A stretch of DNA of 64,000 nt from a phage, in sequence record PZ347775.1; one strand, given 5' to 3'. Below are positions 21,807 through 58,113 of the stretch, in pieces. A program made the position numbers and the translations under genes. The notes under the pieces were generated by a model. That model was not told the origin of the DNA. It made no database searches and was given only the letters and a program-made list of their open reading frames with translations. How positions within the stretch are numbered: position 1 is the first letter of the stretch; every line of letters starts with the position of its first letter.

Positions 21807-22922
21807 ATGGAAAAATTTATGGCAGAGTTTGGACAAGGATATGTCCAAACGCCATTTTTATCGGAAAGTAATTCAGTAAGATACAAAATAAGTATAGCGG
21901 GTTCTTGCCCGCTTTCTACTGCAGGACCACACGTTAAATTTCAGGATAATCCTGTCGGAAATCAAACATTTAATGCAGGTCTTCATCTAAGAGTTTTTGA
22001 CCCTTCCACAGGAGCATTAGTTGATAGTAAGTCATATGCTTTTTCTACTTCAAACGATACTACATCGGCTGCTTTTGTTAGTTTCATGAATTCTTTGACG
22101 AATAACAGACTTGTTGCTATATTAACTAGCGGAAAGGTTAATTTTCCTCCTGAAGTAGTATCTTGGTTAAGAACCGCAGGAACGTCTGCTTTTCCATCTG
22201 ATTCTATATTGTCAAGATTTGACGTATCATATGCTGCCTTTTATACTTCTTCTAAAAGAGCTATTGCATTAGAGCATGTTAAACTGAGTAACAGAAAAAG
22301 CACAGATGACTATCAAACTATTTTAGATGTTGTATTTGACAGTTTAGAAGACGTTGGAGCTACGGGATTTCCTAAAAGAACATACGAAAGCGTTGAGCAA
22401 TTTATGTCAGCAGTCGGTGGAACTAATAACGAAATTGCACGTCTACCAACTTCAGCTGCCATAAGTAAATTATCTGACTATAATTTAATTCCTGGCGATG
22501 TTCTTTATCTCAAAGCACAGTTATATGCTGATGCCGATTTACTTGCGCTTGGAACCACAAATATATCCATCCGTTTTTATAATGCATCTAATGGATATAT
22601 TTCTTCAACACAAGCTGAGTTCACCGGACAAGCTGGGTCTTGGGAATTAAAGGAAGATTATGTAGTTGTTCCAGAAAACGCTGTGGGATTTACGATATAC
22701 GCACAAAGAACTGCACAAGCTGGTCAAGGTGGCATGAGAAATTTAAGCTTTTCTGAAGTGTCAAGAAATGGAGGTATTTCGAAACCTGCTGAATTTGGCG
22801 TCAATGGCATTCGTGTTAATTATATCTGTGAATCTGCTTCACCTCCGGATATAATGGTACTTCCTACGCAAGCATCGTCTAAAACTGGTAAAGTGTTTGG
22901 GCAAGAATTTAGAGAAGTTTAA
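21807..22922 (+). CDS. 35: long tail fiber hinge protein gp35
   Basis: 371 aa; GAGG SD; position between 34 and 36. Confidence 0.85.
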   Translation: MEKFMAEFGQGYVQTPFLSESNSVRYKISIAGSCPLSTAGPHVKFQDNPVGNQTFNAGLHLRVFDPSTGALVDSKSYAFSTSNDTTSAAFVSFMNSLTNNRLVAILTSGKVNFPPEVVSWLRTAGTSAFPSDSILSRFDVSYAAFYTSSKRAIALEHVKLSNRKSTDDYQTILDVVFDSLEDVGATGFPKRTYESVEQFMSAVGGTNNEIARLPTSAAISKLSDYNLIPGDVLYLKAQLYADADLLALGTTNISIRFYNASNGYISSTQAEFTGQAGSWELKEDYVVVPENAVGFTIYAQRTAQAGQGGMRNLSFSEVSRNGGISKPAEFGVNGIRVNYICESASPPDIMVLPTQASSKTGKVFGQEFREV

Positions 22923-26781: not shown

Positions 26782-26802
26782 GGAGAGGGGCTTCGGCCCC
26801 TT
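26781..26802 (+). promoter_or_regulatory. gene 38 split ribosome-binding site (SD + UUCG hairpin)
   Basis: AGGAG at 26781 then aggggc-UUCG-gcccct hairpin, AUG at 26809 (23-nt SD-AUG distance shortened by folding). Confidence 0.55.
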
Positions 26803-34394: not shown

Positions 34395-34597
34395 TAATCC
34401 GCTAAAAGATCGACGATTGCATCACGAAGACACTTATTCGCAATACGCTTAAGAGCAATTTCAGTTTCTGGAGCATTTTGAATAATCATTGAATTCAATT
34501 CAGCCTCAGCAAACTGAAGTTCTTTGACTAATTCAGCTTTATATTTTCCTTGCCCTTTCTTAGCTTTTGCTCGTTTTAATTCAGCTGTAGTAAACAT
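34391..34597 (-). CDS. hypothetical protein (about 68 aa)
   Basis: Track ORF trimmed to MFTTAELK; upstream part of track ORF is the promoter cassette. Confidence 0.5.
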   Translation of the reverse strand: MFTTAELKRAKAKKGQGKYKAELVKELQFAEAELNSMIIQNAPETEIALKRIANKCLRDAIVDLLADY

Positions 34598-34631
34598 TTT
34601 ATTCTCCAAATCCGCATCAGTTGATAGTTGT

Positions 34632-34661
34632 ATAGTACCACAGTCCTTGTGGTTTGTAAAC
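34632..34661 (-). promoter_or_regulatory. sigma70 early promoter (GTTTAC -35, TACTAT -10), cassette copy B
   Basis: Reverse complement GTTTAC-18nt-TACTAT; 43-nt downstream leader nearly identical to copy at 61964-62006. Confidence 0.55.
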
Positions 34662-34677
34662 CGTTTTGTGAAAATTT

Positions 34678-35235
34678 TTAAATGGAAAGATACCATCCGT
34701 TGTAGTTGCTTTTTCTTACAACTTTACGAAGGTCTTCTCTATCACCGATGAACTTCGGAGTGTACTGGATGACACCTGGATGAATTTCTTTAGTGTTGAA
34801 TATAATTATACAGTCAGCGACTTGGTGATTCAGAATGGGCCCTAGATTTATTCCAGAACCGTATGGATACTCTCCGCTGCATCCGGTTGTTACCGAAATC
34901 CAACGTGAGTCAGTTTGGTGTGTCTTAACTTCTACACGAAGCCCGCAATATCTTGGATGCGCCAATACATCCCATGCGTATGTATACGGGTCATTAACAT
35001 CCTCTTGGCCTTTGTTAACATACCCGCTCAGCCAATCTGCTACAAAAAACTCTGCATACACAGCGATACGGCATCTTTCGATAACTTCTGCTTTATCCTG
35101 ATTAGGATTTTGTTTTAAAGAGTATCTTGCTGTATCAGCAATTTTGACCTTCATTTCACTAGTCAAATCATTGTTCGATAGGGTAAATGTTGGAATCTGA
35201 AATAGTCTCTGTAAACCCGGATTCGTTTTCTGCAT
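34678..35235 (-). CDS. denB: endonuclease IV
   Basis: 185 aa as T4 DenB; adjacent to rIIB. Confidence 0.75.
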   Translation of the reverse strand: MQKTNPGLQRLFQIPTFTLSNNDLTSEMKVKIADTARYSLKQNPNQDKAEVIERCRIAVYAEFFVADWLSGYVNKGQEDVNDPYTYAWDVLAHPRYCGLRVEVKTHQTDSRWISVTTGCSGEYPYGSGINLGPILNHQVADCIIIFNTKEIHPGVIQYTPKFIGDREDLRKVVRKSNYNGWYLSI

Positions 35236-35300
35236 TAAACTTTCCTTTTACGTCGGAATCACTGATATTCATATAATAAATCATAGTTTCTCTTAAAACA

Positions 35301-35317
35301 AAAGGGCCGAAGCCCTT
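35301..35317 (-). terminator. UUCG-loop hairpin followed by U-rich tract
   Basis: mRNA aaagggc-UUCG-gcccuuu then uguuuu; lies 4 nt past stop of the 64-aa ORF. Confidence 0.5.
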
Positions 35318-35321
35318 TATT

Positions 35322-35516
35322 TTATTTGAATTGTGCAATTCTTTTCTCTAAACAATCTGCATAAGATTTCATTGAGATAAACTGCGAAAGCAGTAATTCT
35401 TGCTCGACTTCATTAATCGTTAGAAACTTTGTGCTTTCTAAAAATTTGCTTAGTGCATTAATTTTGAGCATTAATTGATCGTATTCTTCTTTTACTCGTG
35501 CTTGATAACCTAACAT
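35322..35516 (-). CDS. hypothetical protein (64 aa)
   Basis: ORF track; AAGGA SD; C-terminus ...IAQFK mirrors rIIB C-terminus ...TEQFK. Confidence 0.5.
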   Translation of the reverse strand: MLGYQARVKEEYDQLMLKINALSKFLESTKFLTINEVEQELLLSQFISMKSYADCLEKRIAQFK

Positions 35517-35530
35517 AATTTTCCTTAGTT

Positions 35531-35546
35531 AAGGGCCGAAGCCCTT
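35531..35546 (-). promoter_or_regulatory. UUCG-loop hairpin at rIIB 3' end (copy of the 35301 hairpin)
   Basis: Identical 16-nt aagggccgaagccctt; overlaps rIIB stop; precedes SD of the 64-aa ORF. Confidence 0.45.
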
Positions 35547-36483
35547 ATTTAAATTGTTCAGTAACGTCTTCAACTACTTCGTATTGGCAGGTACGCATTT
35601 TAGCATCGTTGTAATCAATCGGAATTGATACTACATCGCGAGGATGTACTTTAACTTTTACAACTCGGCTGGTTGAACTGCCAAAGTGACGAATATAAGA
35701 TTTAGAACACACATGCAGACCACGAGAACAAGTTTGTGTATCATCGTCATTCACACGAGTACGTGGCATTTTAACTACTTTACCAGGACTGTTATCAAAA
35801 GTATTTGAATGACAGTCAAAGTAATTACTGCGAACTACTTTCCAAGCATAGAAGTAACCGTCTTCTGTAATTTCAATATCGTTTGCTACCAAGAAATCAA
35901 AGAGTCGAGATACCGCTTTTTGGCTCGGGTTTTCTAACAGATTTTCCAAGAACGGAAAATAAAATTCAAAGTTTTCGCCTTTTTCCATCGAATCGAGAAT
36001 ACGATCAACTAAACCAGACCGCAATTCAATATTTTGATAGAACAAGCTTCCACCTTCAATTCGAACATCACCGGAAATATATTTTTCAACAGCGCGACGA
36101 ACGTTAATTTTTTGCGCCGCTTCTTCCAATTTATCTGCAACAAGCAGATTAAGAATTTCCTGGAAGTTTGAATGAGTATTAGGAGTTGCGTTATAAGTTA
36201 CACCGTCAACAGTAATTGAAATGAATTTTTTAGATGCATTCCAAATAATGTCAGATTTAGCAACTGGAGCAATAGCTGCATCGCTCTTAACTGTAACTGT
36301 AATGTCACCGCTAATGGTAACTTTGGAGCGCTCAGCTTCTTCAGCATTTTTCAAAACACGACGGATTGTGTCCACCGATACACCTTGCCAATCAGCCAAT
36401 TCCTGTTGGGTGTAATTACCACTTGAATACAGTTTGACAATTTCAGCTTGTTCGTTTTTGGTCAGGCATTTAATATTGTACAT
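35545..36483 (-). CDS. rIIB: rIIB membrane-associated protein
   Basis: 312 aa as T4 rIIB; immediately downstream of rIIA. Confidence 0.9.
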   Translation of the reverse strand: MYNIKCLTKNEQAEIVKLYSSGNYTQQELADWQGVSVDTIRRVLKNAEEAERSKVTISGDITVTVKSDAAIAPVAKSDIIWNASKKFISITVDGVTYNATPNTHSNFQEILNLLVADKLEEAAQKINVRRAVEKYISGDVRIEGGSLFYQNIELRSGLVDRILDSMEKGENFEFYFPFLENLLENPSQKAVSRLFDFLVANDIEITEDGYFYAWKVVRSNYFDCHSNTFDNSPGKVVKMPRTRVNDDDTQTCSRGLHVCSKSYIRHFGSSTSRVVKVKVHPRDVVSIPIDYNDAKMRTCQYEVVEDVTEQFK

Positions 36484-36494
36484 AATTTTCCTTA

Positions 36495-38672
36495 TTAGGC
36501 CGCAAGGGCCTTCATAGTTTTAGCGATTTGGGAAACTTCATCATCACTTAAAGAATTGCGATAACCGATGAAGTCGGAAACAATACGGAATTTCTTGGTA
36601 AACTCAGCAACCATTTTATCACTGTTTTTTAAAGCATTACGTGATAATTCATCAAAAAGATTAGTTACGGTCCAGATGTCATGACCGATGGTATCTTTTC
36701 CACCATTGAAATATACACCCCGCAATGAACTAACCATATTACCAAGGCGAGTATATTCTTCGGAAACTTCATCTGTACTGAAATATTTCATCATAAAATT
36801 AAGTTCAGGATACTTAATAATTTTATCAATATATCGCTGAGCTGAACTTGAATAACCTACATACTTATCATAATCTACATCGTCAAAAGCATCTACATAT
36901 AAATCACGCAGAGTTTCAAAAATACATTGGCACTGACCAAGTTCTTTTACCTTTTTCTGCAAAAGTGGACGAATAACATAAAATTCATTAATGCCAATAA
37001 GATTAGCCATACGGGTCAAAATACTCGTAGATGGATTACAAAGCGATGTAGTACCATCCATAGAGAAAATATCAGAACGATGCATATATGCTACATAACC
37101 AGTAATTTCATCTGCTTCTGATGTGAGCGTAAACAGTTCCTCTTTTTCCCAGCGCCCGTCTTTAATTTCAAACTTAAATGCAGTAGCAGTTTTAGGACGA
37201 GGAGCTGCGCTTTTTACTACCTTTGGAATATAACTTTTAACTAAAGCTTCGATTTCTGACAAATAATGAATGTTAACTTCATCACTTTCAAACATTGCCA
37301 TAATGTCAGGAAGCAAATCAATCTGCGATTCTACTTCTGGATTAATAAACAGAAGCCGCTCATTGTGATGAATATTTAAGGTGTTATTAAATTCGCTATC
37401 ATCTAATGCACGTGCTAATCCACGGACAATATTAACACGATTTTTAGTATTATCAATAACAATATTAATTTTTGACGTATTAATACCAAACAGACGATAG
37501 CTTGACGCAACGGCTGAAGTTTCATGGCTTTGCTTAATGCGTTTCAGTCGAGGGTCAAGATTTACTTCATACACAACCCCTGCATTGCATAACTTACTGT
37601 CAGGTTCAAACATACTCTGCATCTTTTTATATGACAGATTTTTAGTCGTGAATTTGACTGAATTGCTAATCATATAATCTCGGGCAGAATATCCCATCTT
37701 CATCAATTCACGGTATGTATGACGAGGAGATGTAGATTCTTTAAATCGTTTTACATCTTCATTAAACGCCTGCTCACTGAGCTCTTTAACACGCTCAATA
37801 ATATTTTTACGAGTACGATCATCTAGTGAAAGAGCCTCACGCGATGGGGCAATATCAAGTGAACCCATTGGAAACTTAATGTAATTCACTTCATTGCGGA
37901 TGCTTAACCAGTTACGATCTCTAATAACACCTTCGATAGGATAAACAATGCCGCCATAGATAGCATACAATCCACCGCGATCTGGCCAGTATCTTTCTGG
38001 ATTTACGCCGTAATAATCATCAAAATCCGGAAAATAATCAATTTCGCGGTCAAGACCGTTAATGATAGCCAAATCTTTGAATGGTCGCATAATATAAGAA
38101 ACTTCATAAGCAAAGTTTCTAAAGTCTTTTTCTTCAACTGGAACTACGATTTCAATACCAGTTTTATCATCTGGACCCATTTCTTTTACGAATGTAGGTT
38201 TAATCTGTGGACCATCACCATCCATGTAAGCTACATAACCACGAATTTCACCTTTATGATATGAAGTAATACTAAATGTATCAGTATAACTAAACGGAGA
38301 TTTAGAACCTAAACCAAATCCACCAATGAAATCATTAGATTCAGCCTTAGATGAACTAAAGTATGAATTATACAACCCAGGAGAATTATCATCACCCTGA
38401 ATATCAAAATCGCTCATACCTGGACCAAAATCTCGGCAAACAAATCGCGGATCTAATCGTCCTGGAACTTGAATGATAAATTTTTCAGGATTTCCATTAA
38501 GAGCATGGGCATCAATCATGTTGGTAATCAATTCACGGACTACTGCGCGAATCTTGTTTGTATACAAATCAGATGACAGAATTTTAAATACTTTAGGAGA
38601 CGCTGTGATGCTAAATGCTTTTGATTTAGAACCATTACCAAGAATTGTTTCTTTTTCAGTGGTGATAATCAT
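36495..38672 (-). CDS. rIIA: rIIA protein
   Basis: 725 aa as T4 rIIA; N-terminal GHKL-like region. Confidence 0.9.
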
Positions 38673-38911: not shown

Positions 38912-38941
38912 ATTATACCACATCCTTGTGGTAAAGTAAAC
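38912..38941 (-). promoter_or_regulatory. sigma70 early promoter (GTTTAC -35, TATAAT -10)
   Basis: Reverse complement GTTTAC-18nt-TATAAT; -35 overlaps gene 39 stop; ccaca/tgtgg stem in spacer. Confidence 0.55.
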
Positions 38942-40758
38942 TATTGGCTCATCCATTCTTTACGAAGGTCAGCATTATCTCCCATAAGCATTTCAAAAAG
39001 CTCTTTCCAGTTCTCAGGAAGTTTAACAACATCATATACTGGATTTTGAATCATCTCACGATATTCAGATTTTTCCAAAGAGCCAAGTCCTTTAATATAA
39101 CGGATGCTATGTTTAGGTAGAGCATCTTTGGCACTCTCATATTCAGCGACTGTATAAAACCATTCTTGTTTTTTACCGACCTGAGCGATGATTACAGGAG
39201 TTTTGACAAAGCGAATTCTTCCTTGTTCAAACAGTTCTGGCCAATTACTAAAAAATCCGAGCAGAGAAGGATAAATGCTTCCTAGACCATCATGGTCAGC
39301 GTCAGTCATAATGGCAATATTGTGATAATTCAAGTTTTCGGCTTTTTCACCAAGAACTAATCCAGTGATTGCGCAAATATCAAACAGTTCTTTGTTTTTA
39401 AGCATATCAGCATAAGACATACCCCAACTGTTGAGAACTTTACCACGCAATGGATAACCACCATGAAGTTCTTTATCACGAACATCAATAAGATATCCGA
39501 TAGCAGAATCACCCTCAGTCAAGAAAAGAGTAGTATCAGCATCTTTACCGCAAAGATTCGCTTTAATATGTTTATGAACCTTAGCTTTAGAAGCCTTTTT
39601 AGCTGCTTTAGTTTCTGCTGCTTTTTCTGCCGCCAATTTACGAGCCAAAGCAGCTTCAATAATTGGCATTAAAATTGCTTCATTATTTAAAATAGCACGT
39701 GAAATCTTTTTAGCATCAAGCTGAATATGACTACGAATTTCACCAAATGGAGAAGTCAAACGCTCTTTAGTTTGAGAATCAAATCGCATGTTTTTCATAT
39801 CACGAACAAACATAACGATAGTCAAACATTCTTTAACACGTGCTTTAGTTACATCAATTTTGAACTTACGTTTGATTTGTGGAATAAGGTCTTCACAAAT
39901 ATCATCCATAACACAGTCAATGTGATGGCCACCATTCTTAGTATGAATGTTATTAACGTATGTTAATTGACGAAAACCGTCGGGTGAACGACCGACCGCA
40001 ATAGAACAGTTTTCCTGTTCTTGAACGATAGCATGCTCATCATATTGGCGTGCATATTTCTTAAAATTACCCTGAACCTTTTTACCGTTAAAGGTAAATT
40101 GAATATCAGGATAAACTACTGCAAGTGTCTGGAGACGATCTAGTGTAATGTCAAGATAAACTTGAGATAGCTCATTAGTTTCAAATGACATAAAATCAGG
40201 AATGAAAGTAACGCGAGTTCCTTTCCATTTTCCAGGAATATCTTCCCATGATTTATTTTCCATGCCATTTGAACAACGAACTACAATATTATTTTGACCA
40301 TCGCCAGTTTCACCGACAAACATCACAGAAAAAATGTTAGTTAAACTAGAACCAACACCGTTCATACCGCCAGTGACGCGTTCTTTGTCATCACCGAAGT
40401 TACCACCTGCTTTTGGAATAGTCCAGGCAGCAACAGGACCAGGAATTTCTTCACCAGTAGGTGTTTTAACCATCGCTTGTGGAATACCACGACCGTTATC
40501 TTCAACTGTTACTTGATTGTTTTTAATAGTAACATTAATTTTATTCGCGAATTTAAACTTAGTACGAATACCTTCATCTACTGAGTTATCGATAATTTCA
40601 TCAATAAGCTTAACAAGACCAGGTACATACTGAACACTTTCCCATTTACCAAACAGAAAGCGCTCATGCATTTCATTAGCAGAAGAACCAATGTACATGC
40701 CGCTACGCTTTTTGATATGTTCAATATCGCTCAGAATTTTAATTTCATTCTTAATCAT
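38941..40758 (-). CDS. 39: DNA topoisomerase II large subunit, uninterrupted (gp39 with gp60-equivalent C-terminus)
   Basis: 605 aa from MIKNEIK; GHKL ATPase motif VEDNGRGIP; C-terminal about 115 aa (IAIMTDADHDGLGSIYPSLL...) is the segment encoded by the separate gene 60 in T4. Confidence 0.95.
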   Translation of the reverse strand: MIKNEIKILSDIEHIKKRSGMYIGSSANEMHERFLFGKWESVQYVPGLVKLIDEIIDNSVDEGIRTKFKFANKINVTIKNNQVTVEDNGRGIPQAMVKTPTGEEIPGPVAAWTIPKAGGNFGDDKERVTGGMNGVGSSLTNIFSVMFVGETGDGQNNIVVRCSNGMENKSWEDIPGKWKGTRVTFIPDFMSFETNELSQVYLDITLDRLQTLAVVYPDIQFTFNGKKVQGNFKKYARQYDEHAIVQEQENCSIAVGRSPDGFRQLTYVNNIHTKNGGHHIDCVMDDICEDLIPQIKRKFKIDVTKARVKECLTIVMFVRDMKNMRFDSQTKERLTSPFGEIRSHIQLDAKKISRAILNNEAILMPIIEAALARKLAAEKAAETKAAKKASKAKVHKHIKANLCGKDADTTLFLTEGDSAIGYLIDVRDKELHGGYPLRGKVLNSWGMSYADMLKNKELFDICAITGLVLGEKAENLNYHNIAIMTDADHDGLGSIYPSLLGFFSNWPELFEQGRIRFVKTPVIIAQVGKKQEWFYTVAEYESAKDALPKHSIRYIKGLGSLEKSEYREMIQNPVYDVVKLPENWKELFEMLMGDNADLRKEWMSQ

Positions 40759-40785
40759 CACTTATCCTCGTTTGATTTCGGGAAT

Positions 40786-40812
40786 ATTATACTCCGGTAA
40801 TCATAAAGCTAA
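40786..40812 (-). promoter_or_regulatory. candidate MotA-dependent middle promoter upstream of gene 39
   Basis: Minus strand reads aGCTTTA (MotA-box-like, one mismatch) - 12 nt - TATAAT, then GAGGA SD and gene 39 ATG. Confidence 0.3.
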
Positions 40813-40827
40813 AGGCCCGAAGGCCTT

Positions 40828-41088
40828 TTATTTAAAACGGATAGTCGAATCCTTGAAGAATAGACCAGAACATACGGTTCCTTCTACTTTCTGCCCTGTA
40901 GGTCCAATAGCACGAAATCCAGTATGCTGGAAATCATTTTCAGAGCAACCGAACCAATTATATCCAGTGATTTCAATATTAGTAAAACCACTTGAAGACA
41001 AAACTTTGGTTGCATTATCAGCATCAGTACATCCTACTAAAGATACTGCTAATACTAATGCCGCGATAGAACGATTAACATATTTCAT
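40828..41088 (-). CDS. predicted lipoprotein (about 86 aa)
   Basis: Track ORF trimmed to first ATG MKYVNRSIAALVLAVSLVGCTD (signal peptide + lipobox). Confidence 0.5.
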   Translation of the reverse strand: MKYVNRSIAALVLAVSLVGCTDADNATKVLSSSGFTNIEITGYNWFGCSENDFQHTGFRAIGPTGQKVEGTVCSGLFFKDSTIRFK

Positions 41089-41092
41089 AATT

Positions 41093-41464
41093 TCACTCAA
41101 ATTTAATGGCTTGAAGGAGACTAATAATTCTTAAGCGACTTCTTTCATCTTTAACTGTAAAAGAAAGAGGGTCACCAGATTTCATAGTGATGGTGCATCC
41201 AAAATCAAAATCTTCTGTAACTTCTTCGAAGAAGTCAAATTCTTCATCATAAATTAGAACATTACTCTGAAAACTGTGAAGAATTTTTCCATCATTTCCA
41301 GATGCTGTACTAATCATTGTAACATTATGGCCTTTCATATCTTCAACGATAAATTCGCTTGTAGATATTACGGCATTAATAGAACCATTCCTATAAATAG
41401 AAGAAAGCAGATATTTCTTTTCTTCACCTTCGCGAACACGATATTTCTTACCGATTTTAAACAT
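41093..41464 (-). CDS. hypothetical protein (about 123 aa)
   Basis: ORF track trimmed to first ATG (MFKIGKKYRV). Confidence 0.5.
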   Translation of the reverse strand: MFKIGKKYRVREGEEKKYLLSSIYRNGSINAVISTSEFIVEDMKGHNVTMISTASGNDGKILHSFQSNVLIYDEEFDFFEEVTEDFDFGCTITMKSGDPLSFTVKDERSRLRIISLLQAIKFE

Positions 41465-57750: not shown

Positions 57751-58113
57751 TTAAAAGAATTTAAATTTTTTCTTTGACCTTTTATTAAATGCATCTTGTA
57801 GTTGCATTGTAATACATTTTTCTACATGAGGAGCTAACTCAGCTTTTCTTTCTTGGTCAAGAACAGCAAAGTCCATTACGACTTTTCCATCAACCCAATC
57901 TAATTTTGTCACATACACAATGTGTGTAGAACCGTCTTCTAGTTTAATGACAATCTCCTGGATAACATTTTCCATGGCAGATTTAATTATCTTAAGAGAT
58001 TCATTAAAAAGACGTTCTTTTCTTTCTTCTTCCCCCTCCGAAGAGGGGGATTCATCGATAATTTCTAGATCTAAATCTAAATCATCTTTATTCATTAAAT
58101 TCTTCCATATCAC
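57751..58113 (-). CDS. 40: probable gp40 (head vertex assembly chaperone)
   Basis: 120-aa ORF (start uncertain, overlaps uvsX 3' end) between uvsX and 41 as T4 gene 40. Confidence 0.55.
   Translation of the reverse strand: MIWKNLMNKDDLDLDLEIIDESPSSEGEEERKERLFNESLKIIKSAMENVIQEIVIKLEDGSTHIVYVTKLDWVDGKVVMDFAVLDQERKAELAPHVEKCITMQLQDAFNKRSKKKFKFF

Follow-up and report, generated by a model that had tools for sequence, protein, structure and literature searches.

A second UUCG hairpin was probably added after denB.1 in the T4 genus by recombination at a gene end

The window, a 64,000-nucleotide stretch of phage DNA, comes from a T4-like phage (Tequatrovirus), and its closest record is phage BYEP01, at 98.7%. 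The segment described here is rIIB-denB.1-denB, in which every gene lies on the minus strand (Table 1). The rIIB protein matched PHROG 609 RIIB with an E-value of 3.8e-111. The ATG of denB.1 is at 35514-35516, 3' of its Shine-Dalgarno (SD) sequence, AAGGAAAA. An Rfam search of 34500-36600 at a permissive threshold matched no family.

Table 1. Features of the rIIB-denB.1-denB segment, in window coordinates
Feature	Position	Strand	Basis
rIIA	36495-38672	minus	ORF list
rIIB, 312 aa, end ...TEQFK-TAA	35545..36483	minus	ORF list; PHROG 609 RIIB; annotated in T4 and relatives
Mirrored coding end, copy A, TGAACAATTTAAATAA, ...EQFK-stop	35545..35560	minus	repeat search; 88% identity to copy B
Hairpin 1, between rIIB and denB.1	35530..35547	minus	sequence; predicted fold; covariation
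SD region of denB.1, AAGGAAAA	35519..35526	minus	read from sequence
denB.1, 64 aa	35322..35516	minus	T4 annotation "orf denB.1"; PF21825; phrog_774
Mirrored coding end, copy B, TGCACAATTCAAATAA, ...AQFK-stop	35322..35337	minus	repeat search
Hairpin 2 and U-run	35295..35318 (hairpin 35301-35318; UUUUGUUUU 35295-35303)	minus	terminator-like site; fold; annotations elsewhere
38-codon relic of a ~109-aa ORF	35168..35284	minus	alignment to FL23; translations; sb3 sequence
denB (endonuclease IV), 185-aa reading as in T4	34678..35235	minus	phrog_1360, E 1.8e-97; annotations; sequence

As the first-pass annotation had reported, the small ORF between rIIB and denB is flanked by two copies of a 16-nt hairpin. 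The window contains exactly two copies of the 16-mer AAGGGCTTCGGCCCTT, on the minus strand at 35302-35317 and 35531-35546, with 0.00 copies expected (100 shuffles). Each copy has a 7-bp stem, in which four of the seven pairs are G-C, and a UUCG loop, (U/A)AAGGGC-UUCG-GCCCUU(A/U). Predicted energies of 26-nt segments were -10.9 kcal/mol for hairpin 1 and -10.2 kcal/mol for hairpin 2 (z about -2.7).

The likeness extends beyond the hairpins; flanks that failed to align there were what the first-pass annotation had named as evidence against its own reading. Upstream, TTATTTGAATTGTGCA (35322-35337) and TTATTTAAATTGTTCA (35545-35560) are identical at 14 of 16 positions, each being the QFK-TAA end of its gene, so the mirroring of the rIIB end by that of denB.1 is confirmed. 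These coding-end repeats are spaced 223 nt apart, compared to 229 nt for the hairpins, an offset of 6 nt due to an indel. Downstream, both hairpins are followed by a similar SD/ATG stretch, TAAG(A)GAAA(A/C)(T)TATG. For the SD and start codon, AAGGAAAATTATG comes after hairpin 1 and AAGAGAAACTATG after hairpin 2 (AAGGAAAAATTATG in Sf24 and FL23), and the next ATG lies 13 nt and 16-17 nt from the hairpin, respectively. A copy-against-copy alignment of the whole stop-hairpin-SD-ATG module gave 40 identical positions out of 50 for the window and 45 out of 50 for Sf24.

Since copies of the 16-mer and its core are spread over the T4 genome, the 16-nt identity, which had been taken as a sign of local duplication, is no evidence of it. 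A census of T4 found 23 perfect UUCG-loop hairpins, mostly just 3' of stop codons, with five exact copies of AAGGGCTTCGGCCCTT and the 12-nt core GGGCUUCGGCCC in 10 of the 23. Among the 253 pairs of these hairpins, the pair of hairpins 1 and 2 ranks fifth overall and first by its upstream flank; other T4 pairs at unrelated sites are equally similar in their flanks. Without the hairpin, the flank similarity is moderate and was equalled in 58 of 5000 composition-preserving shuffles. The first 50 kb of JS98 contain five hairpins, every one with a different stem, and the hairpin at its gp39.1 is itself AAGGGCTTCGGCCCTT. This stretch of JS98 was used because a scan of the collection for the JS98-type hairpin GGAGGCTTCGGCCTCC, as a measure of within-genome homogenisation, was uninformative, the motif being common in unrelated viral contigs.

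The mirrored coding end had also been read as a trace of duplication, and most of it turned out to be native to each gene. TEQF is also found at, or very near, the end of rIIB in the JS98 group and in loci L021-L023. The last Phe of denB.1 is invariant (RIARF, RIQRF, RISYF), while its Gln-62 is found in Tequatrovirus only, the outgroups having Arg or Tyr. By these alignments, the Q-F codons go back a long way in the rIIB and denB.1 families alike, firmly so in denB.1 for the final Phe only. More T4 ORFs end in Lys than in any other residue (54 of 341), and Lys-TAA is the most frequent type of gene end. A third gene, the gp39.1 homologue, ends in RFK-TAA ahead of a UUCG hairpin. A QFK end is found in just 2 of the 341 T4 ORFs, namely these adjacent two, and only 14 of 57,970 T4 ORF pairs agree at 11 or more of their last 12 nucleotides (match probability 2.4e-4).

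The 64-aa ORF is the T4 gene denB.1, a conserved and old resident of this position. It scored 69.7 bits against Pfam PF21825 (crAss001_48-related), above the curated gathering cut-off of 24.8, with an E-value of 1.9e-19 over residues 4-61 of 64, and all 18 of its close homologues carry the same domain. It also matched phrog_774 (E 5.6e-23). A tblastn search matched 667 phage records, including 497 of about 498 Tequatrovirus records, and the gene is thus fixed within the genus. Its AF2 model is a predicted two-helix hairpin (pLDDT 95). No sequence relatives were found in the PDB (best E 0.45), Foldseek with the model returned generic helical hairpins only (E >0.3), and a large protein search returned near-identical T4-like sequences only. 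In the literature searched, the name denB.1 was found only as a mention in a genome description. We rejected, by eye, the idea that denB.1 is a duplicate of the rIIB C-terminus, as the translations are alike in their last three residues only.

The first-pass annotation proposed that this gene had been inserted at a terminator, and gene order across relatives does not bear that out. The order rIIB-hairpin-denB.1 is syntenic in JS98-type (Dhakavirus), PEi20-type (Kanagawavirus), and Klebsiella T4-like phages and in one further lineage. Because these four other sampled lineages have rIIB-hairpin-denB.1-ORF, denB.1 at this site is older than Tequatrovirus. Its GC3 (0.26, compared to 0.25-0.28 for rIIA and rIIB) shows no compositional anomaly. 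In RB69, denB.1 is missing, and a single hairpin separates rIIB from the next ORF. The PF21825 family has a patchy distribution across unrelated phages, such as Schitoviridae and crAss-like phages, and the gene has therefore moved over long time scales. A linkage of the family to rII outside Tevenvirinae was considered and rejected, since the N4-like phages KP8 and ort11 place a homologous domain near or inside a gene of the N4 gp49/Sf6 gp66 family, away from rII.

Hairpin 1 is UAAGGGC-UUCG-GCCCUUA with a C(UUCG)G tetraloop, and the rIIB stop codon (35545-35547) makes up its outer three pairs. It was found at all 20 IMG/VR loci and in RB69 with differing stems, those of the sampled lineages and RB69 being GGGC, GGAGGC, GGGGC, and GGGGAC. 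Five of its seven pairs are altered on both sides, and 88% of cells are paired, compared to 32-67% in slid controls; none of 500 shuffles reached the covariation score. On this comparison hairpin 1 is ancient, and its stem appears to have been kept through compensatory changes. It has no sense-strand U-run, its tail being UUAACUAAGG, and efficient termination by it seems unlikely. From its form, it would most likely be a stable structural barrier on early polycistronic mRNA, where it would shield the rIIB message, upstream, against decay from the 3' end and also keep it insulated from the ribosome-binding site of denB.1.

Hairpin 2, AAAGGGC-UUCG-GCCCUUU, begins 3 nt past the denB.1 stop codon. 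It has an A-tract on its 5' side and the U-run UUUUGUUUU on its 3' side, the first three U of which lie within the stem, which together make a terminator-like site on the minus strand. The extended fold has a predicted energy of -13.7 kcal/mol. This hairpin is annotated as a stem_loop in T4 record X75802 and as a "putative terminator" in phage G29, and it would most likely act as an intrinsic terminator or attenuator after denB.1. Both hairpins are also terminator-like on the plus strand, where they have T-rich tails. No transcript ends at either hairpin were found in the literature searched, and the database records are predictions; we therefore infer RNA-level functions from form only.

The distribution of hairpin 2 is much narrower. 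It was present at all five Tequatrovirus loci and in FL23, Sf24, T4, Ozark, and WilhelmHis, and absent from all 15 non-Tequatrovirus loci, where the denB.1 stop codon abuts or overlaps the next ATG. It is nearly invariant inside Tequatrovirus and too young for a test of compensatory change. Across this sample of 15 loci plus RB69, hairpin 2 is by its distribution a derived, Tequatrovirus-specific addition. The comparison of the rIIB-denB junction across relatives, which had been suggested as a check, therefore separates the two features: hairpin 2 is restricted to one lineage and RB69 has a single hairpin, but denB.1 is not recent.

The junction is also a site of recombination in other phages. 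In two other genera, a mosaic breakpoint lies just past denB.1 (L016 compared to L019, and L021 compared to L023), with 99% identity in rIIB, 92-94% in denB.1, and 34-42% in the next ORF. In Sf24, a tandem duplication spans the junction. Of 31 evenly sampled Tequatrovirus records, about 13 retain the ORF located after hairpin 2 and the others have lost it by deletion; its full length of about 109 aa is found in FL23, Sf24, sb3, and RB32-type phages. In the window and in T4, the relic of this ORF results from an in-frame internal deletion between the 7-nt repeats GTAAAAG and GTAAAAAG, and its SD and ATG are the right end of the hairpin-2 module. On a point of annotation, the start of the 185-aa denB of T4 falls inside this relic of a deleted gene; the JS98, RB69, and WilhelmHis annotations share a denB start (MKVKI...) that corresponds to the ATG at 35152-35154. 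A chimeric query, made of the rIIB end, the hairpin, and the hairpin-2 tail, was used to look for a deletion recombinant between the two hairpins. None was found in the best 25 of 498 matching records, all 25 of which matched as two pieces about 229 nt apart and therefore have denB.1. No intermediates, such as a tandem duplication of denB.1, were found either.

By this comparison of loci, Tequatrovirus gained a second hairpin module, which comprises a Lys codon, TAA, the hairpin, the U-run, and a new SD, and did not gain the gene itself. The second hairpin was probably added in the T4 genus by recombination at the gene end, in an ordinary reshuffling of this junction. The recombination footprint proposed at first pass thus holds in part: the duplicated flank is real, the junction is a breakpoint, Sf24 has its duplication, and RB69 has an empty site, but a recent insertion of the gene is not supported.

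Our explanation is as follows. In other genera, denB.1 is translationally coupled to the next ORF. In Tequatrovirus, this coupled junction would have been replaced by the module, which closely resembles the one distal to rIIB and has the same short homologies at its borders. The left homology is (A)CAATTY, from the Q-F codons that end both genes, and the right one ATTATG. Most likely, the 3' end of denB.1 would have received a copy of the intergenic module distal to rIIB through gene conversion or an illegitimate crossover at these microhomologies, either by unequal exchange in one genome or by a cross between a denB.1-carrying phage and a denB.1-less, RB69-like relative. Hairpin 1 need not be the donor, because AAGGGCTTCGGCCCTT is also found at unrelated T4 sites. 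What weighs against copying, as far as the alignments go, is that most of the mirrored coding end is otherwise explained by a native TEQF, a native Phe, and a common Lys-TAA. Taken as a whole, the explanation that denB.1 is old and not an insert, that its 3' end acquired a copied stop-hairpin-SD module, and that the junction concerned is a recombination breakpoint in other genera seems to us somewhat better than an even proposition.

The strongest alternative, which we consider possible but rather unlikely, is that nothing was copied: hairpin 2 arose alone or was seeded from any member of the T4 family, and the shared Q-F is a coincidence. T4 would favor one optimal minimal hairpin, GGGC-UUCG-GCCC with A/U extensions, and its ribosome-binding sites are all like AAGGAAAnnATG. 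An A-rich 5' flank (Lys AAA plus TAA) would be favored because a two-way terminator results. In agreement with this, the core 12-mer is found 10 times and the 16-mer five times at unrelated T4 sites, AAATAA-like ends precede four of the seven GGGC/GGCC-type hairpins that come after genes, and hairpins 1 and 2 are also terminator-like on the plus strand. The drift of orthologous hairpins through compensatory changes can lead to the same 16-mer, as it did for the JS98 gp39.1 hairpin. The ancestral TEQF of rIIB and final Phe of denB.1, the frequency of Lys as the last residue, and the modest significance of the flanks alone also fit independent origins. However, the rarity of QFK, at the ends of two adjacent genes, would then have to be fortuitous, as would the top-ranking upstream flank among the 253 pairs and a likeness that runs in the same order through four segments (coding end, hairpin, tail, and SD-ATG) and reaches 45 of 50 positions in Sf24. 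The junction is, independently, a recombination breakpoint.

We find it improbable that denB.1 entered as a cassette at the rIIB terminator of an RB69-like genome that lacked it, duplicating QFK-stop-hairpin, with hairpin 2, whose U-run directly precedes the next ORF, as the terminator that rIIB originally had and hairpin 1 as part of the donor DNA. RB69 has the exact empty-site layout (rIIB, GGGGACUUCGGUCCCC plus a U-run, then ORF272c), and the U-run and AAGG tail of hairpin 2 are nearer to the rIIB-distal hairpins of RB69, L025, and Klebsiella phages than the tail of T4 hairpin 1 is. The scattering of PF21825 also indicates a gene that is mobile over long time scales. However, the synteny in four other lineages puts denB.1 at this site before Tequatrovirus, so its insertion would need a loss and then a re-gain in the T4 lineage. 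The near-universal presence of the gene in the genus and its GC3, which matches that of rIIA and rIIB, also argue against insertion. The RB69 junction (…UUUAGGGGUAAUUAUG) resembles the SD region of the outgroups, and a simple deletion of denB.1 fits it.

A gene-60-like bypass (for its features, see PMC3014915), with take-off at the last Lys codon of rIIB (AAA, 35548-35550) and landing on an AAA 25 nt downstream in frame with the denB.1 ATG to give some RIIB-DenB.1 fusion, is very hard to credit: UAA does lie in the hairpin stem, an SD-like AAGG precedes the in-frame AAA (35520-35522) and AUU AUG follows it, and the T4 gene-60 bypass hairpin is in the same census (2837-2854), but the in-frame AAA...AAA is found in Tequatrovirus only, with mismatches in JS98 (UAC), PEi20 (UAC), and RB69 (GAA), a nascent-peptide signal is not evident, and the layout follows trivially from an ordinary stop, hairpin, and SD. 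Programmed -1/+1 frameshifting at UUUAAAUAA was rejected from the sequence because the tRNAs on zero-frame CAA-UUU-AAA-UAA cannot re-pair once shifted.

The twin-hairpin locus can be set beside several known systems. Tuerk et al. reportedly described the C(UUCG)G tetraloop hairpins of T4 intercistronic regions in 1988. The twin copies are 2 of the 23 T4 hairpins, with the commonest stem, and do not differ from the others in structure: they share the UUCG loop, the C-G closing pair, the short G+C-rich stem, and a position just 3' of a stop codon on early polycistronic mRNA. What is particular here is the arrangement, in which a single small gene lies between two identical copies that have similar flanks, and the confinement of the second copy, among the sampled loci, to Tequatrovirus. 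UUCG tetraloops were first found in T4 mRNA (PMC4371310).

Compared to intrinsic terminators, hairpin 2 has the G+C-rich stem, UUUUGUUUU, and the A-tract, whereas hairpin 1 lacks a sense U-run. Two-way terminators have been predicted in T4-like genomes, including a conserved bidirectional one downstream of uvsW.1 (Nolan et al. 2006, PMC1524935). In T4, one exact copy of AAGGGCTTCGGCCCTT (114184-114199) lies just 3' of uvsW, before the oppositely oriented uvsY genes, and this may be the same site. Also comparable are the morons of lambdoid phages, which are ORFs with their own promoter and terminator inserted between genes: denB.1 is likewise a small ORF that lies between two larger genes and has a terminator-like hairpin after it. 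However, denB.1 has no promoter of its own and no compositional anomaly, on which grounds the moron reading was rejected, and it occupies an ancient, syntenic position. Nolan et al. also described the novel ORFs of T4-like phages as unlike morons (PMC1524935).

A further parallel is with the PeSL (promoter-early stem-loop) cassettes of T4-type phages (Arbiol et al. 2010, PMC2839356; Comeau et al. 2014, PMC4122927), repeated intergenic modules in which a stem-loop is combined with an SD and a start codon. PeSL copies flank small variable ORFs in hyperplastic regions, and recombination between the copies has been proposed as the route of insertion, deletion, and exchange (PMC2839356, PMC4122927). 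The region rIIB-ndd is one of these hyperplastic regions, and the PeSL authors discuss an exchange of ndd.4/.5. Here too, each module ends, on its 3' side, with an SD and a start codon. PeSLs are defined by a stem-loop followed by a sigma-70-like early promoter (-35/-10) (PMC4122927), and no such promoter was found between either hairpin and the next ATG. In addition, the flanked gene, denB.1, is invariable within the genus (497 of about 498 records), and no excision product was seen at it. With regard to gain and loss, denB.1 is absent in RB69 and fixed in Tequatrovirus, while the ORF after hairpin 2 varies, its deletion being at the GTAAAAG repeats and not at the hairpins.

The locus adds a small, clean, and datable case in which a stop-hairpin-SD module replaces a coupled junction in one genus and other genera have a recombination breakpoint at the same site; its significance beyond T4 genome evolution is slight. 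If the copying is true, it extends the PeSL idea to promoter-less hairpin modules and helps explain the frequent reuse of one hairpin by T4. A bolder and doubtful generalization is that the UUCG modules of T4 (stop, hairpin, SD, and ATG) are promoter-less mobile punctuation cassettes, which would spread between junctions by microhomology-mediated conversion, uncouple genes, and leave direct repeats for later gene gain, loss, or exchange. Hairpin 2 would then be a datable copy in the Tequatrovirus ancestor, and the excess of one stem in T4 would be the genome-wide signature. The gene, the hairpin type, and the idea of stem-loop-driven shuffling are already known, and the twin-hairpin locus is a promoter-less analogue of the PeSL cassettes.

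The window is from a T4-like phage that belongs to Tequatrovirus. With 2 kb around the locus as query, 625 phage records matched, and phage BYEP01 came out on top (98.7% identity). The minus strand carries every gene of the rIIA-rIIB-denB.1-denB stretch, in which the 64-aa ORF is the one named denB.1 in the T4 record. It scored 69.7 bits for Pfam PF21825 ('crAss001_48-related protein'), where the cut-off is 24.8, and also matched PHROG 774. Its AlphaFold model is a confident two-helix hairpin (pLDDT 95), for which a structure search returned generic matches only. At 80% identity or higher, denB.1 was found by tblastn in 497 Tequatrovirus records, and a junction query found its region in 498; the gene is essentially fixed within the genus. 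A DenB.1-like domain forms a stand-alone 67-aa ORF in the N4-like Klebsiella phage KP8 (locus L158), two genes after a gene of the N4 gp49/Sf6 gp66 family. In the N4-like Sinorhizobium phage ort11 (locus L159), it is the C-terminal part of a protein of that family, and it is C-terminal in longer proteins in several PHROG profiles too.

Coordinates of the features in the window
Feature	Coordinates	Strand
Plus-strand UUCG hairpin AGGGGCTTCGGCCCCT	26786-26801	+
denB	34678-35235	-
ATG of the conserved MKVKI start of denB	35152-35154	
Relic of the next ORF	35168-35284	-
U-run of hairpin 2	35295-35303	
Hairpin 2 (3' of denB.1)	35301-35318	-
16-mer, copy in hairpin 2	35302-35317	
denB.1 (64-aa ORF)	35322-35516	-
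Hairpin 1 (between rIIB and denB.1)	35530-35547	-
16-mer, copy in hairpin 1	35531-35546	
rIIB	35545-36483	-
rIIA	36495-38672	-
Gene 39	38941-40761	-
UUCG hairpin at the gp39.1 homologue	40811-40828	-
gp39.1 homologue	40828-41100	
Coding-region UUCG hairpin TCCCCCTCTTCGGAGGGGGA	58031-58050	-

The 16-mer AAGGGCTTCGGCCCTT occurs exactly twice in the window, with 0 copies expected by chance. Both copies are predicted to form a stem of 7 bp, capped by a UUCG loop with a C-G closing pair (about -10 to -11 kcal/mol). Their 5' flanks in the mRNA, ...ACAATTTAAATAA and ...ACAATTCAAATAA, are the ends of rIIB and denB.1 (QFK-stop in each); 14 of 16 positions agree, and a 6-nt indel adjoins the hairpin. 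On the other side, TAAG(A)GAAA(A/C)(T)TATG stands 3' of both hairpins. The first-pass annotation had described a small ORF bracketed by a duplicated hairpin and mirrored coding ends, and both elements were recovered; because the flanks align past the hairpin on both sides, the likeness is not confined to its 16 nt. When the stop-hairpin-SD-ATG modules are aligned over their full length, 50 positions yield 40 identities in the window and 45 in phage Sf24. The flanks give a signal of moderate strength: similarity this high was reached by 58 of 5000 composition-preserving flank shuffles. Among 253 pairs of T4 UUCG hairpins, this pair ranked fifth overall and first for the upstream flank. At least 11 of the last 12 nt are shared by just 14 of 57,970 T4 ORF pairs, and the QFK end is found in rIIB and denB.1 only (2 of 341 T4 ORFs).

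The UUCG tetraloop was discovered in the classical C(UUCG)G intercistronic hairpins of T4 (PMC4371310), and the hairpins flanking denB.1 are full members of this family. The whole T4 genome (MT984581, loci L031-L034) was assembled, and a count gave 23 perfect hairpins with a UUCG loop and 4 or more pairs, mostly right behind a stop codon. Exact copies of the 16-mer number five, after uvsW, a-gt and gene 55.3 and as both copies at denB.1; the 12-nt core GGGCTTCGGCCC has 10 copies. Since the hairpin belongs to a genome-wide family, its 16-nt identity is no evidence of local duplication, the argument for which can rest on the flanks only. Shared flanks are also seen in other T4 pairs, e.g., 58799/15305 and 36609/5384, in which early-promoter-like sequence follows the hairpin, resembling published PeSL cassettes (PMC2839356, PMC4122927). 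The GGGCTTCGGCCC stem is common to 10 of the 23 T4 hairpins, whereas the five hairpins in JS98 1-50000 (locus L157) have five different stems, several of them at sites orthologous to those of T4 (after 39.1, regA region, soc, nrdC.11). Homogenisation of hairpins inside the T4 genome could be the cause. A strong 8-bp UUCG hairpin, TCCCCCTCTTCGGAGGGGGA (T4 22315-22334), is not intergenic and lies in coding sequence near the start of gene 40, about 40 nt past the uvsX stop. The plus-strand hairpin AGGGGCTTCGGCCCCT stands 3' of a 1053-codon ORF ending in ...YIVRLA*, and in the window an ATG comes 9 nt later. At T4 gene 37 this end and this hairpin are found again, at 159629.

The rIIB-denB junction was compared in 20 IMG/VR contigs and in annotated genomes, as proposed in the first pass, and three arrangements were found among T-even relatives. 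In the first, rIIB, a hairpin and denB.1 are followed without spacer by a further ORF (about 90-106 aa) and denB, and the stop codon of denB.1 adjoins or overlaps the ATG that follows. This arrangement occurs in JS98-type (Dhakavirus), PEi20-type (Kanagawavirus) and Klebsiella T4-like phages and in the lineage of loci L021-L023. The second, confined to Tequatrovirus among the loci examined, runs rIIB, hairpin 1, denB.1, hairpin 2, next ORF or its relic, and denB. The third, that of RB69 (Mosigvirus), has rIIB, a single hairpin with a U-run, the next ORF and denB, with no denB.1. Given these arrangements across lineages, hairpin 1 is ancient. Its stem varies by lineage (GGGC, GGAGGC, GGGGC, GGGGAC) with pairing kept; both sides changed in 5 of 7 pairs, pairing holds in 88% of cells and the covariation score was attained by none of the shuffles. 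The structure is therefore under selection. Three features are derived in Tequatrovirus: hairpin 2, the Lys codon ahead of the denB.1 stop, and an SD of its own for the next ORF. The mirrored coding end is for the most part native to each gene: rIIB ends in TEQF* (L021-L023), TEQFANEYKY* (JS98), TEQFKSDLR* (locus L017) and TEQFK* (T4), and denB.1 in RIARF*, RIQRF*, RISYFGE* and, in T4, RIAQFK*. The final Phe of denB.1 is invariant, and Gln precedes it in Tequatrovirus only.

Evidence of recombination at this junction comes from several genomes. Within two other genera (locus L016 vs L019, L021 vs L023), the last 150 residues of RIIB are 99% identical and DenB.1 92-94%. The next ORFs diverge beside them (34-42% identical), which places a mosaic breakpoint right at the denB.1 3' end. 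The ORF after denB.1 has at least two divergent allelic types, RB69/Klebsiella and JS98/PEi20/T4, distributed discordantly with rIIB and denB.1. In Shigella phage Sf24 (locus L008, about 1100-1650), a tandem duplication of ~270 nt covers the denB.1 3' part, hairpin 2 and the next ORF 5' part; it has given rise to a fusion ORF (gp122) and to a third copy of the hairpin. In the window and T4, the next ORF is reduced to an in-frame relic of 37-38 codons, which arose by deletion between GTAAAAG and GTAAAAAG repeats. FL23, Sf24, sb3 and RB32-type phages retain the full ORF (~109 aa), as do about 13 of 31 Tequatrovirus records sampled evenly; JS98, PEi20, Klebsiella phages and RB69 have orthologues. 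The T4-style start of the 185-aa denB (35235) falls inside the relic in another frame; denB is annotated from the conserved MKVKI start in JS98, RB69 and WilhelmHis.

Most likely, denB.1 was not inserted, and a module replaced the junction instead. The first-pass reading of a recombination footprint is partly supported: the flank match and the recombination at the junction speak for it, the presence of denB.1 at this position in other genera against an insertion. In the Tequatrovirus ancestor, the coupled denB.1/next-ORF junction would have been replaced by a Lys codon, TAA, hairpin, U-run and SD. The hairpin-2 module is collinear with that 3' of rIIB, and the two have the same microhomologies as boundaries: (A)CAATTY, which the Q-F codons supply, and ATTATG, located at the start of the following gene. 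The simplest origin of the module, and the one we lean towards, is an illegitimate crossover or conversion at these short homologies. The route may have been unequal exchange between sister genomes with later loss of the second denB.1 copy, or a cross of a denB.1-carrying phage with an RB69-like phage without it. A small recombination footprint at denB.1 is plausible but unproven.

Convergence is a serious rival to module copying, possible rather than probable. The same hairpin is reused at many T4 sites, Lys-TAA is the commonest T4 gene end (Lys is last in 54 of 341 ORFs) and an A-rich 5' flank would give a two-way terminator. The gp39.1 homologue (90 aa, lipoprotein-like N-terminus LVGC) is a third gene ending in ...RFK-TAA directly 5' of a UUCG hairpin (AAAGGCCUUCGGGCCUUU). 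Its JS98 orthologue ends in RFD* before AAGGGCUUCGGCCCUU, the very same 16-mer as at denB.1, and the two stems are thus related by a compensatory swap. Insertion of denB.1 at a terminator, which would require loss and then re-gain in the T4 lineage, is improbable.

Hairpin 2 has the A-tract, G+C stem and UUUUGUUUU of an intrinsic terminator and, judged by this form, is probably one; it is annotated as a stem-loop in T4 record X75802 and as a putative terminator in the phage G29 record. Hairpin 1 holds the rIIB stop codon within its stem and has no U-run. Its form makes it more likely a stable barrier, which would guard the upstream message and keep the denB.1 ribosome-binding site free.

A gene-60-like bypass would take off at AAA, with UAA in the stem, and land on an in-frame AAA 25 nt further on; it was rejected, as JS98, PEi20 and RB69 do not conserve this codon match. 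Gene 39 of the window is a single unbroken 606-aa ORF (...MTDADHDGLGSIYPSLL...); therefore, this phage is without the gene 39/60 split, mobA and the 50-nt translational-bypass gap of T4. The T4 bypass hairpin GATAGCCTTCGGGCTATC (T4 2837-2854) is absent from the window. At both denB.1 hairpins, the ATG follows at 13-17 nt, and no promoter-like site was found between hairpins and ATGs. Since the early promoter that defines PeSLs is missing, these hairpins do not belong to that class, but they could act as PeSL-like recombination substrates. Both the gene at this locus and the type of element on either side of it are already known.
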